DNA from: Escherichia coli
Lineage (GTDB): Bacteria > Pseudomonadota > Gammaproteobacteria > Enterobacterales > Enterobacteriaceae
NCBI RefSeq assembly: GCF_030013595.1
Contig: NZ_CP122769.1
DNA: 64,000 bases
Direction: 5' to 3' (one strand)
Below, piece by piece: positions 58,101 through 64,000 of this stretch; position 1 is the stretch's first letter, and every line of letters starts with the position of its first letter. A program made the position numbers.

Positions 58101-61100
58101 TTGCATTTGGGAATATCTTCGAATGCTTCGGGTTTTCTGTTGTAGTAGCGGTTGTATATTGGATTGCGTATAACAAAGCAGCTGAGTCAGGAATAAGAGG
58201 ATTGCTAAAACACAGACTCTGGTGGCTCGGTTTTTTGCCAGGTAAAGCAGTTTTTAGTAGCCGTTATTTCAACGATCCATTTATCAGAGATTTGTATTCT
58301 TGATGGAGCTATGAATGAAAATGCTAAGTGGCATTAACATCCCTTTTTTCAAAAAATCTAAAAAGGATGAAAACGGTGATCTTGAACAGTCATACGTAAA
58401 GAAAGATGAAAGTGCTAAGGGACGTTTTTTGGACATTAAAAAACGATTTAGCCCACAAGCTGAAGCGTCAGGTGCTGGAATTACATACAGCGCCCTGATT
58501 AATCGTGATACAAAACTTATCCGCATTAATACTGTTTCAATAGCCGTCATTGGGTTATTGGTTGCAAAGATTCTTTTTTTCACTGACCCAGTGACGATTG
58601 TTACCCCTCCAAACATGAATGAAGAGATCACGGTTGTTGGTAACAAAGCATCGGAATCTTATAAAACACAATGGGCTCTCTTTTTTAGTACCCTTTTAGG
58701 GAATATTAATCCAACTAATATTTCCTTTGTGACGGCCTATGTCCTCGATGCCCTTTCACCTGAACTACAGGCTAAAACGAGTGAGTCTTTACAGGAGCAG
58801 ATAAATATCATGCAGGCTCGTGGTGTTGAGCAGACCTTTAAGCCTAATGATATTTACTTTGATCCAAAAAATGACATGGTCTATGTCTGGGGTACCAAAA
58901 CGACTCGACTTGTAAATGTTCCGGACAAAACTGAATCATCGAAATGGACTTATGAATGGGTTCTCGGGATGAAAAATGGTCGCCCAAGAATTGCATATGT
59001 AAATCAATATTCCGGAACACCGAATATTAAAAAAATTACGATAAACGGCAAAGAGCAACTGGCAACGCTGGATAATCCGCCACCGTCTACAGGTAACAAG
59101 TGATGATTAAAAAAAGGGCTTAGGGTTCAACGCAATTACCGCATTGATCATGCTCACGACTTCGAACTGCGTAATCGCTGAAGAATACCAATTGCCAGCA
59201 ACAATTAATAACCCGGTTGTAATGCCAGTTGGTGCTGACGGATTTCAGAATGGAGCTGCAAAAGCCATTATTCCGGGTCAAGCTGGTTCTGAACAGTCAG
59301 GTGCACAAACAAACCTTAGTGAAGCCGGTAATGCGCAGGGACAAAAACCTACAACTGATCTCCCTACCGTGCAACTTTCCCCAGCCAGCAATGCTTCGCC
59401 TGCGGTAAGCGCTATTACTGGAGCATTATCAAATAATCCTAGTCTCCCCGGATTTGACGCACAGACCCGCTCTGGTGCAATTGATAGCTATGGGAGACCA
59501 ACAGGTACCTCTTCCCAGCAGAATGCAACCAATGCGACCGCCACGTCAAAAGCCGATGAACTTTATGTCGAAGCTCGTAACCGATATAAAGAAGTTCAGC
59601 GTGTAAATGTGCCGCCTGGTGGGAATGTGGTACTGCCAGTTTCACGAGGACTTCAAAACAGAATATCGACCAGCTTCAAGAATGCTTCTGTCAGCACTTC
59701 TACCCCTGCTGAAGAGGCAAGCATATTTGTTAATGGTGGCGATGTCTTTATTTCAACTAATACCGATAAACCAATCGGGATTATGTTGTCGGAAGATCAG
59801 GTACCTGAATCGACCTATAACCTGACCCTGGTACCGCTTGATGTTCCCGGTGCGATGATTTCAGTTACTACATCTTTAAGCCCATCTATGCAAGCCAAAC
59901 GTGAAACCTCATTGGATAAGCAAAACTATGAGGAAATGTTGGCCCGCTCCCAGTCAGAAGAACTGGCTCCATCGGATCCAAAACAAGACGATCATAAACA
60001 AAGAATCATTGATTTATTGACTCCTGTGGCTCTTGGTGAGGTCCCTTCAGGATTCAGTTTACAACAGGACCGACTTTCTCGTATTCCTGCGTCAGAGCAG
60101 TCCCCATGTAACTTTAATATGTATGCAAAGCTCGGTCAGAGACTGGTTGGCTCACGTGAACTTATTGATGTAATTCTTGTGAAAAACGATAAACCATACG
60201 GTCAAATCGTTGCTGATCAGCAGTGTATGGCAGAAGGCGTTATTGCAAGTGCTTTATTTGATAAAGCATACCTGCAACCGGGAGAAGAAACAGAGCTTTA
60301 CATAGTCCGGGATAAATTGTTCAAGGAACGCGAGGCCCGGGTTACAACCAGACCAAGTCTAATCAGAAAATAATATGGGAAAAGTTACTTTGCCTGCTCT
60401 GCTTGGGGCCACCGTGATTGGTTTTGTCGTATTTGCTTTAACCAGCTTTTACTACAGGTCAGAATATATACCAAAAAGGAGTGTATTAATCGTTCCGGAC
60501 GCACCCATTAGTATCGAAGATGGCAGTAACGCTTTTCCCGTTCAGACAGTAATAATGAACGATCCAACTCTTATTGATAAATTTGTAGGAGAGGACAATA
60601 TTAATGAGGAGAATGCTTTTGACTATCACAAAAGTAACGTTTTGGAACCTAATTACAAACATGAAATATCTAGAACGAGCCAGATAGATAAAGCTGAAAT
60701 GAATCATCCATCTGTTCGTGAAAACTGGGCCAGAGCAGGTGATCCCTATATCGTTCCTCAGATGTCTGACAGCGAACGAAATCTAAAAATTAAACGATTC
60801 CAGAAACCTACAAGTGGAGCTAATCATGGACATTAAAAAGGCCTGGGAAAATAAGACCGTCAGACTTTCTGTTATTGGCGCTCTGCTGGTAGTGATTGTT
60901 TATATTATTAGCCAGTCTATTTTTTCCACACCAGTTAAGAAAGAAAAGAAAACACAGAAAAAAGACATGCAGACCAATTTGTTGTTAGATGATTCGCAAA
61001 TGAACAAATTGAGTAATGAAGAAAGCCAGAAAGTATATAAGGAAATGGTTAAGCAAAACCGACTTGATCAAAATGCGGCGAAAGAGGACCGCGAAAAAGC

Positions 61101-64000
61101 AGAAAAAGCCCAACAGGAAACTAAAGCCCAAGTTGCAAGTTTAACTTCTCAACTTCAGCAACTGTCTCAGCAAATTAATGATATGCAGACTAATCGAAAC
61201 GGCAATCGTAACTTGGATGCTGGTAGTTCGCGTAAAACGATTAATGAGCAGGCACCGGCAGCTCCTTATCAGCTTAATGCTAATGCGCCGATTAATGGCG
61301 TAAACCCTAATTACGCGTCTATCACACCTACGCGTAATAGCCCGATGAGAACAATCACACAAAGTTCCATTAAGACTAATGGTACCGATGGTGTCATTCA
61401 GGTTATGCCCGTGTCTGAAAACAGAATCAAGGAAGGCAGAGAGGTCATTGCAGGAGATAAAGCGCCTACTCGGACTGTACGAGGTGATGGTACTGCGCCA
61501 GTTGATAGCAAAGCGCGGCATGCTGCCCGAAAAGATGAAATGTTTCTTCCGGCAACATCTATTATCACTGGTGTTCTGATTACCGGGCTTGAAGCGCCTA
61601 CAAGCCTTTCTTCCAAATCAGAACCAATGCCAGTAACAATGCGTATTAAAAAAGATGTCATCATGCCCAATAATTTCACCATGGATTTGCGTGACTGTAA
61701 CCTTCTGGGTTCAGCTGTTGGTGATTTGGCGTCACAGCGTGCTTACATACGTGCCACTTCTATCTCTTGTGTTAATTCAAAAGGGAAAGCTTTTGACGTA
61801 AAACTGGAAGCATATGCTGTAAGTGAAAATGACGGAAAAAATGGGATCCGAGGCACGCTTATCAGCCGAAATGGTAACGCAATTGCAGGAGCTGCATTTG
61901 CCGGTGGACTTTCTTCACTTGCCGGTAGCTTAAGCCCCAGTAAGGTATCTTCACTTAACATCGACCCTAATTCACAGGCTCAGTATCAGTCCCCTAATTT
62001 TGGTGCACTTGGGGCATTAGCCGGGGCTGGTGCAGCTCAAGGTGGCCTTAATCGACTCGTCGATTACTACACCGCAATTGCAGAACAACAGTGGCCAATC
62101 GTAGAAATTAGCCCTGGCCGAGCTATTACATTTGTCGTTCAGACCGGAACTACAATTCCAACGAATCTGACCAGTCGCTGAGGTTTAAATGGATAGTTTA
62201 GAAAAAAAAGAATCGACTGAATCAGCTGGACCTGAAATCACTAAAAAAATGGTGCGAGAAAGGACAACAAAAAAAATTACCTTCGAAATTGATATTGAAA
62301 AAATATTGAAGTATTTATTTTTCTTCGCCTTTGCCGTTTTGGTCATTATTTATGGTTATAAAGGCTTTATGAATGTTTACGATTACTTCAATAAACAATC
62401 ACAGCCTTCGTACAAGATTGCAGTGCTTGACATGCCTGAATTACGTAAGGAATTTTTCAAGCATCACGGAGGCCGTACTGCTGACAATGATAGAACTCAA
62501 TTCGAAGAATATTTCAGAACATTAATGAAGATCTACCGTGACCGTGGCTATTTAATTATTGATGCAACGCTTGCCGTTACTGTACCGGATAGTGTTGAAA
62601 TCGTCACTTATATGGAACTTGAAGATAGCTCTGAAGCGGTACAATCAAGTTCTTATAATGCAAAGAAGTAGAGGGCACCCAATAGTGAAAAAGTTACTTT
62701 TCCCTTTAATGGCGGCTTTCGCCATTATGGCGAATACGGTCACTTATGCTTCAGAGCAGGTCCTAACTAATAGTGATGCTGCTGCGTTAATGGCAAAGGC
62801 AAAGGAAGGCGGCGTTTCACCCAGTCAGATCTCGGGTGCGTTATCAAAAATGAAAGGATATAAACCTAAGGATGCCATATACATTCCTTCTGGTGGGCTA
62901 TACCTCTTTCAGGACGAGCGTTCGCAGCTAATGGCAGTAACGACCGATGGCCGATACTCCCTTACTGGGGGAAGCCTTGTTGATGTAATTAAACGTAAAC
63001 CTGTTCTGACTGTAGAAGAAATCAGAAATTCCTATTTTATTAGTCTTGATGAGGCCCCCTTCCCTCTGGAAACTGTAGCGTCCATTCATCTGGGAAATTC
63101 AAAGCTTAAGAGACAAGCAGCCATTTTCTTAACACTTGATTGTGACGGTTGCATGGAACTTGTTAAGAAATTTTATGCAGATCGGGACAAGTATCGGATA
63201 GATATTGTTTTAGTTCCCTCACCCGGTGAGCCAAAAGAAGAGCTTAGAAGGCTCTGGTGTAGTAAAGAAAAAGGAAAAATAAACAACCTCGATATTCTTC
63301 GTTGGCTAATGGGAAGCAAATCCGACATTGAAAAAAGATTGCTCTCTCAAAAAGAAGCAGAAGAATGTCCGGCGGAACCTTTGGTAGCGTCATTGATGCT
63401 CGCAGGAATTTATAAATTGCAGGGTGTACCTTCAGTTGTCAGACAGGATGGTTTGGCTGGTAATGGCATTCCAAAAGATTTCGACTACTGGTTGAACCAA
63501 AGCGTTGAACCTCTCTTAAAAAATCCATTTGAGACAAATTAAGGCTAGTTTATGAACATCAAAAGATTGGTACTCAGTGCTCTGGTTGTAGGTACATCCT
63601 CATATCTTACGGGGTGCTCCATCGGGAGTTCCGAATCCGAATGTCCAGGCATTGAAAAGGGCGTTATCTGTAAAGGTCCTCGCGAAGTTATGGAGTTAAC
63701 TAATAATCGAGATGATCTGTCTGCACTTGCGGGGGAAGAGTCGGAATCGGGAAAGGAGAAATCGGCTGTCAATGACAGCCGTTATCCAACTGAAATTAGC
63801 CCTCCAGGGGAAGTCAAATATCCACAGTCTACAACCCTTAAAAATCAGCCTGTGGCTTATTCAAAAACCGAAATTAAGCCAGTTGGTCAGTTACCTGTCA
63901 TGTACGATAAAACTTTAAAAATGGGTGCCCCTACTTCATCCATTGGACCACGGCCTATTTCTGGTGTACCGGTTAATTCAAACGTAAGGATGACTAGCAG

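Follow-up and report, generated by a model that had tools for sequence, protein, structure and literature searches.

The described systems closest to the two genes treated here include the IncHI1 plasmid R27 and the F plasmid. [quoted passage not shown] R27 htdO (R0030) is expressed, and, as for the rest of the AC operon, its level at 25 °C is 4-fold that at 37 °C (PMC7366339). The DsbC protein of R27 affects transfer only in dsbC-null hosts (PMC10838148). A supplementary gene table names an IncHI2_htdV (AZZ87330.1) and an IncHI1_htdV (AKJ19935.1, 'putative membrane protein') (PMC10682676), and no function of HtdV is described in the searchable literature. The TrbI protein of F is a 128-amino-acid bitopic inner-membrane protein that is dispensable for transfer and binds TraH; its mutation or over-production alters pilus length and phage sensitivity, and it affects pilus retraction (PMC7555446). 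The window analysed here is a stretch of 64,000 nucleotides of Escherichia coli DNA (NCBI RefSeq assembly GCF_030013595.1, contig NZ_CP122769.1), and its subject is a pair of open reading frames (ORFs) at 60375-60836 and 62189-62671, which are htdO and htdV, genes already named as 'H transfer determinant' genes. Both entered the databases and received these names some two decades ago; all that is new here is a probable, computational link of HtdV to TrbI and Skp and the definition of a conserved motif in HtdO.

The last 7 kb of the window are 100% identical to IncHI2 plasmids (more than 1,000 database plasmids). Plasmid records matching this part at 99% or better number 1121, with Escherichia, Salmonella, Enterobacter and others as hosts. 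The backbone that holds both genes, known and named as they are, is among the plasmid backbones sequenced most often. IncHI2 plasmids are a major vehicle of mcr-1, mcr-9 and carbapenemase genes, which gives their transfer machinery practical interest. In NZ_CP022165.1 (IncHI2A, MOBH, MPF_F) the genes run in the order repB, a pilin gene, traL, traE, traK, htdO, trhB, a gene for a hypothetical protein, htdT, trhV and traC, and the two ORFs correspond to the RefSeq coding sequences (CDS) 4819-5280 (htdO) and 6633-7115 (the hypothetical protein). Both belong to the operon trhA-L-E-K-(htdO)-B-(htdV)-htdT-V-C on an IncHI2 plasmid, a conjugative pilus operon of IncHI type (MPF-F, MOBH) in which they are accessory genes. 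A preliminary description of the window had reported two membrane ORFs in the pilus operon at these positions, the first between traK-like and traB-like genes and the second between traB-like and dsbC-like genes. The ORF list, the RefSeq CDS and one hydrophobic segment in each product agree with this, and family matches together with the RefSeq order bear out the flanks.

The same description could name no counterpart for either ORF, and in this it was mistaken. The product of the first scores 213 bits against the NCBIfam equivalog NF041317 (HtdO; cut-off 150) over residues 1-153 of 153, and the Pfam family PF28168 (HtdO) is found on its relatives. It shares with HtdO of R27 the position between trhK and trhB, the N-terminal anchor and the C-terminal motif, at 41-43% identity to the IncHI1 protein; it is the IncHI2 allele, and nothing of substance sets it apart from the R27 HtdO family. 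The product of the second ORF is identical in 159 of 160 residues to AZZ87330.1 ('IncHI2_htdV', 483 nt, in pSDE-SvHI2) and is 53% identical to the IncHI1 protein, of which AKJ19935.1 (in pF8475) is a deposited example, and its gene lies between trhB and htdT, as do the deposited HtdV genes. The R27 ORF at this place is presumably R0028. Pfam and NCBIfam scans with HtdV find no family, and the name, used by depositors, is not used by RefSeq/PGAP, which has no family model for it. The preliminary description had also, with reserve, placed an extra gene ahead of trhV in H-type transfer regions and matched the position of 62189-62671 to it. Such a gene does exist, but it is the DsbC-like htdT, and htdV is a further one upstream.

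The two genes are tightly packed against their neighbours. Only 1 nt separates the trhK stop from the htdO start, and htdO has no clear Shine-Dalgarno sequence, which fits translational coupling to trhK; the htdO stop overlaps the trhB ATG (60826, with GGAG before it) by 11 nt. The htdV ATG lies 7 nt past the trhB stop, with a GAGG Shine-Dalgarno sequence 7 nt upstream, and the end of htdV reaches up to or into the coding sequence of htdT if that gene begins at its likely true start; in relatives the htdV-htdT junction is an overlap of 4-20 nt or a 2-nt gap. Inside 60375-62671 there is no terminator-like site on the + strand and no promoter-like site scoring above 9/12. At the level of predicted signals, this layout shows htdO and htdV as co-transcribed, and translationally coupled, with trhK, trhB and htdT.

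There is next to no chance that these ORFs arose as artefacts of annotation or belong, with wrong starts, to neighbouring genes; the latter outcome is one that the preliminary description had named as a refutation. Both are short and have no Pfam domain in the local library, and htdO overlaps the start of trhB. Yet each, by its coordinates, is in a frame different from that of either flanking gene, length and motifs persist even where identity has fallen to about 20%, curated HtdO families exist and R27 htdO gives a microarray signal (PMC7366339). The proportion of nonsynonymous differences (pN) is also well below that of synonymous ones (pS): against IncHI1 (pHCM1) the values are 0.36 and 0.71 for htdO and 0.31 and 0.74 for htdV, with synonymous sites saturated. 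The artefact reading was rejected on these conservation data.

Searches of plasmid records by tblastn find HtdO in 1401, 1399 of them with a copy of at least 80% length, and HtdV in 1966, of which 1401 reach that length; the remainder include IncHI3/HI5-like Klebsiella plasmids at about 30% identity. The latter encode a 'hypothetical protein' of 172-175 amino acids between traK and traB, which a hidden Markov model (HMM) built only from closer HtdO sequences recognises at E 1e-12 to 1e-13. When 1.84 billion representative proteins are scanned exhaustively by HMMER for the HtdV profile, only 22 match, and every full-length match for which the contig was fetched has the order traL, traE, traK, htdO, traB, htdV, dsbC-like gene, traV, traC. 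Both genes keep fixed positions in all of the at least 12 H-type loci examined (IncHI1, HI2, HI3/HI5-like and metagenomic relatives), with identities falling from 89% and 86% to about 20-27%. In Klebsiella pneumoniae pEGY_KP3 (CP154635.1, IncHI1B/FIB; L007 3070-3764) the HtdV homologue is found in two CDS (55 and 97 amino acids) about 230 nt apart, either by natural disruption or by assembly error; if the plasmid still transfers, this is a possible natural knockout. In two IncHI2 records (NZ_CP086605.1 and CP123377.1) an insertion of some 1.3 kb splits the match to the htdO-trhB-htdV stretch, and the annotation of CP123377.1 shows an IS4-like ISVsa5 transposase under the match; insertion sequences thus occasionally interrupt the Tra2 AC operon.

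Other F-type systems are built differently at these two points. In F, traK and traB are contiguous and traP, trbD and trbG stand between traB and traV; in Rts1, traK, traB and traV are contiguous, and in the F-type cluster of Aromatoleum traK and traB are. The HtdO and HtdV HMMs find no significant match among the ORFs of the F tra region, Rts1 and the Aromatoleum plasmid, and a published SXT comparison names no counterpart of either gene (PMC10838148). The comparison with IncHI and SXT proposed in the preliminary description thus gives both genes in IncHI1, HI2 and HI3/HI5-like operons and none listed for SXT, and the htdO-htdV pair is a hallmark of the H-type operon. The claim of that description that the genes are lineage-specific holds for their occurrence, which is H-type only, but probably not for the origin of HtdV, given the remote TrbI link set out below. 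F, too, has small accessory genes in the traB-traV interval, namely traP, trbD and trbG. The TraP protein resides in the inner membrane, is non-essential and has two membrane segments (PMC7555446), and the F tra-region ORFs, those for TraP, TrbD and TrbG included, show no similarity to HtdV (best E 0.89) or HtdO (above 4). In plasmid 1 of Aromatoleum aromaticum EbN1 (L022 4777-5274) a gene for 165 amino acids lies between traB and traV, matches Pfam FlgO at E 5.3e-5 and is unrelated to HtdV. The traB-traV slot is filled with different small genes in different lineages.

In a comparison with a relative at about 10% divergence (L015), dN/dS is 0.43 for htdO and 0.32 for htdV, against 0.07-0.19 for trhL, trhE, trhK, trhB and htdT. 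Selection on the two genes is purifying but relaxed, and they are apparently not essential for transfer. The view of the preliminary description that they are mating-apparatus components worth testing is right in that they lie inside the mating-pair-formation operon, but it is weakened in that both fall outside the 11 essential Tra2 genes of R27 as quoted above. An unlikely alternative makes HtdO and/or HtdV missed essential core subunits of the H-type machine, standing in functionally for parts that in F-like systems belong to TraK or TraB themselves. Their retention at fixed positions over the whole H-type divergence range would agree with this, as would the coupling to trhK and trhB, which suggests matched stoichiometry, and the much greater length of TrhK (409-423 amino acids) than of F TraK (242), by which the core differs from that of F. 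Against it, besides the quoted R27 list, stand dN/dS values 3-6 times those of core genes and the fact that F and Rts1, for which the set of required genes is established, do without a counterpart and that none is listed for SXT. Nor does the HtdO HMM find a counterpart or relocated segment in any ORF or Tra protein of the F tra region, Rts1, the Aromatoleum plasmid or a metagenomic F-type cluster.

The 19-residue Kyte-Doolittle maximum of HtdV is 2.11, at residues 36-54. Some 35 residues precede the helix and are rich in K and R just before it (cluster RERTTKK...EK), which under the positive-inside rule argues for a cytoplasmic N-terminus (N-in topology). An AlphaFold2 (AF2) model, whose predicted local distance difference test score (pLDDT) averages 60 and lies at 62-78 in the domain, shows a single long helix spanning residues 36-71 and then a domain with the order strand, helix, helix, strand, strand, helix. 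As modelled, HtdV would sit in the inner membrane, with its N-terminus on the cytoplasmic side and a domain of some 90 residues in the periplasm. This picture bears on the product names in RefSeq, where identical or 99%-identical proteins are called 'hypothetical protein' in some records and 'transcriptional regulator' in many. Apart from that label, found also in GenBank, little speaks for a regulator, and the idea is highly improbable: HtdV has no DNA-binding or other Pfam or NCBIfam domain, most of its length lies past a clear transmembrane helix, its gene is embedded and translationally coupled in a structural Mpf operon, and the known IncHI regulators are HtdA, TrhR and TrhY (PMC7366339). 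The label was rejected as unsupported by domains or topology, and it should go.

A link between HtdV and F TrbI is provided by a bridging family of three proteins (P0027, P0148 and P0149). P0027 was the weakest significant match of the exhaustive HtdV scan (E 6.5e-4 for the whole library), and its gene lies two genes past traC in an F-type cluster, near the place that trbI has in F. Word-indexed searches recover only two relatives of P0027 and only close relatives of HtdV. The best Pfam family of all three bridge proteins is TrbI_Ftype (E 0.02, 2.6e-4 and 1.6e-4; 15.7-22.4 bits, below the gathering threshold of 27.4). By hhalign the HtdV family matches the bridge at 96.7% (E 3.9e-10, 95 columns), and still at 96.2% (E 2.2e-9) when the membrane helices are taken out; the HtdO family, likewise bitopic and used as a control, reaches 0.9%. 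The bridge matches the F TrbI family at 81.5% (E 1.1e-5), or 68% once a chimeric row (P0109) is dropped. Over 974 ORFs the three top matches of the bridge HMM are the post-traC genes of Aromatoleum, Rts1 and F, and among the 2678 stop-to-stop ORFs of a complete IncHI2 plasmid it finds HtdV only (E 4.5e-5; next 1.3). The F-TrbI HMM has no match among these 2678 ORFs, nothing TrbI-like follows trhC in IncHI2 and PGAP annotates no TrbI on the complete plasmid. The post-traC gene of Rts1, orf214, matches the bridge HMM weakly (E 0.0068), and for this reason its dispensability is not confidently transferable.

Structure prediction points the same way. In the AF2 model of F TrbI (pLDDT 71.5) the elements follow one another as they do in that of HtdV, so that the predicted order of both, from the membrane onwards, is helix, strand, helix, helix, strand, (strand), helix. 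The two models, built independently, have the same two PDB chains at the top among 48,164, with Skp as the top structural neighbour of both. For the HtdV domain the Skp/OmpH periplasmic chaperone is a near system by 1SG2, 1U2M and 8GL8 chain G, of which 1U2M is E. coli Skp; the Skp fold has a body of strands into which a helical hairpin is inserted. In a published Phyre2 table 1U2M is also the best template for residues 47-120 of F TrbI, at 81% confidence, with no comment there on its identity (PMC7555446). The Skp/OmpH family model (PF03938) does not match HtdV and gives only E 0.058 with P0027. In addition, HtdV as predicted and F TrbI would both be bitopic in the inner membrane, each with a cytoplasmic N-terminus that is short, a single membrane helix and some 90 residues of periplasmic domain; both occur in MPF-F systems and both lie outside the essential gene set. 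The differences are that trbI stands between traC and traW and htdV after traB and before dsbC, that HtdV is 32 residues longer, mostly at the N-terminus, and that a retraction phenotype and TraH binding are known for F TrbI only.

Several results count against kinship with TrbI. When HtdV is compared directly with F TrbI by hhalign, the match falls short of significance (E 0.32, 0.43 and 0.12, with or without the bridge merged in and with P0109 removed), and HtdV and 16 H-type homologues give no match to PF09677 or TIGR02744 at E up to 1. The bridge-to-TrbI match drops to 26.6% for the domain alone, with the membrane helix removed, the bridge profile is built on only three sequences, and htdV follows trhB, not trhC. 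These points, the low confidence of the HtdV AF2 model and the mere 22 representatives in the large scan favour a second explanation, in which HtdV is lineage-specific and unrelated to TrbI, the bridge and Skp-like matches are convergence and the protein has another function, for example as a partner of TrhB or HtdT. This has a real but minor share of the probability. It has to contend with a bridge link that stays strong without the membrane helix, with the independent TrbI-likeness of the bridge (best Pfam match, post-traC position and HMM ranking), with the top PDB chains common to both models and with the near-zero score of the bitopic control. HtdV is therefore not filed as a TrbI_Ftype member, since it fails the family model and the direct comparison is not significant, and is regarded, from profile and fold comparisons, as a probable remote and highly diverged TrbI relative with a small, putatively Skp-like fold. 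H-type systems, so far listed without a TrbI, may have one.

Such kinship gives HtdV a testable role, in which a TrbI-like protein of Skp-like fold may form a pilus-dynamics or chaperone module with HtdT. We propose, by analogy with F TrbI and in view of the coupling to htdT and the effect of DsbC in R27, that HtdV would oligomerise at the inner membrane and act as a membrane-tethered holdase or scaffold for periplasmic and outer-membrane cysteine-rich Trh proteins (TrhH and partners). It would work together with the adjacent DsbC-like HtdT, and would tune the dynamics of the H-pilus without being required for transfer.

HtdO has a different build. Its 19-residue Kyte-Doolittle maximum, reached at residues 4-22, is 2.30, and each of the 12 family members compared has a hydrophobic N-terminus. 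In these 12 sequences the juxtamembrane segment is moderately conserved (I39, P41 and D63-x-T-L-x-x-K-F-V), residues 73-115 form a hydrophilic linker with a sliding conservation of 0.23-0.34, and the C-terminal motif, W-x-[RK]-A-G-x-P-Y-[IV]-V-P-Q-[MI]-x4-R-x-L-K-[IV]-K-R-x3-P, reaches 0.6-0.84, with seven invariant residues (A121, P124, Y125, Q129, K140, R141 and P145). No homologue of HtdO is found among PDB sequences, and Pfam, NCBIfam and PDB sequence searches with both proteins and their family profiles recover only HtdO itself. The N-terminus of HtdO may be anchored in the inner membrane, with a variable and probably disordered linker crossing the periplasm and the nearly invariant C-terminal motif of about 30 residues docking on the TrhK/TrhB core complex. 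The protein would then be an H-lineage-specific strap from the inner membrane to the secretin-like ring, a model drawn from its coupling to trhK and trhB; it resembles the inner-membrane partners of secretins in concept, and homology is not claimed. This reading of HtdO is weaker than that of HtdV: docking is suggested by gene position and the pattern of conservation, and the anchor may instead be cleaved as a signal peptide. The sharply conserved C-terminal peptide is where a partner is to be sought.

Taken as a whole, the account that joins the identity of the two genes, a TrbI-like HtdV and an HtdO strap is the best explanation and a fairly probable one. A broader and rather doubtful extension would unite HtdV, F TrbI and the post-traC bridge proteins in one superfamily of inner-membrane-tethered mini-Skp chaperones common to MPF-F systems. 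The H-type gene would have moved beside a dedicated DsbC (HtdT) as a periplasmic folding module for cysteine-rich pilus-dynamics proteins, and HtdO would be a new H-specific connector docking its C-terminal peptide on the TrhK/TrhB ring.

Coordinates of htdO, htdV, their predicted parts and the flanking genes in the window
Feature	Position	Strand	Remarks
htdO	60375-60836	+	153 amino acids, ATG start, bitopic; plasmid transfer protein HtdO, R27 R0030 equivalent
HtdO N-terminal hydrophobic anchor	60384-60455	+	about residues 4-27
HtdO conserved C-terminal motif	60720-60812	+	residues 116-146: NWARAGDPYIVPQMSDSERNLKIKRFQKP
htdV	62189-62671	+	160 amino acids, ATG start, bitopic; WP_000377633.1
HtdV transmembrane helix core	62303-62359	+	about residues 39-57
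HtdV putative periplasmic domain, TrbI-like / Skp-like	62402-62623	+	about residues 72-145, beta-alpha-alpha-beta-beta
trhK (TraK-like secretin)	59102-60373	+	TraK_C E 2.4e-5
trhB (TraB/VirB10-like)	60826-62181	+	Pfam TrbI (VirB10 family) E 5.8e-23; NCBIfam F-type TraB E 4.4e-34; RefSeq trhB
htdT (DsbC-like protein-disulfide isomerase)	62685-63542	+	RefSeq htdT; tightly coupled downstream of htdV

Among the flanking genes, htdT appears to be annotated too short. RefSeq/PGAP starts it at 62790 (MAKAKEGG...), which leaves it with no signal peptide and with an apparent gap of 118 nt after htdV. An upstream GTG at 62685 has GAGGG 9-10 nt before it and gives MKKLLFPLMAAFAIMANTVTYA/SEQ; ATG 62658 is an alternative. 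From either codon the product would have a classical signal peptide and the gap to htdV is closed, and gene calls in relatives use the long form. The true start is likely to be GTG 62685 or ATG 62658.

The trhK gene of the window is frameshifted at codons 3-5 by a run of seven A residues (59109-59115), where almost all IncHI2 plasmids have eight. The ATG at 59102 meets a stop after six codons, the intact ORF begins only at TTG 59144 and the n-region of the signal peptide is lost. The A7 variant, carried by at most 10 of 1120 IncHI2 records that are scattered over E. coli, Klebsiella and Salmonella, reflects either an error in sequencing the homopolymer or slippage that recurs and would leave the secretin-like protein switched off. 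Further upstream, between the stop of the trhA pilin gene (57935) and the RefSeq start of trhL (57986), a G+C-rich hairpin with a T-run (GAGGGGGTTCATCCCCCTC TCTGGATTTT) lies at 57955-57973. It looks like a partial terminator, which would keep the pilin mRNA above that of the downstream genes.

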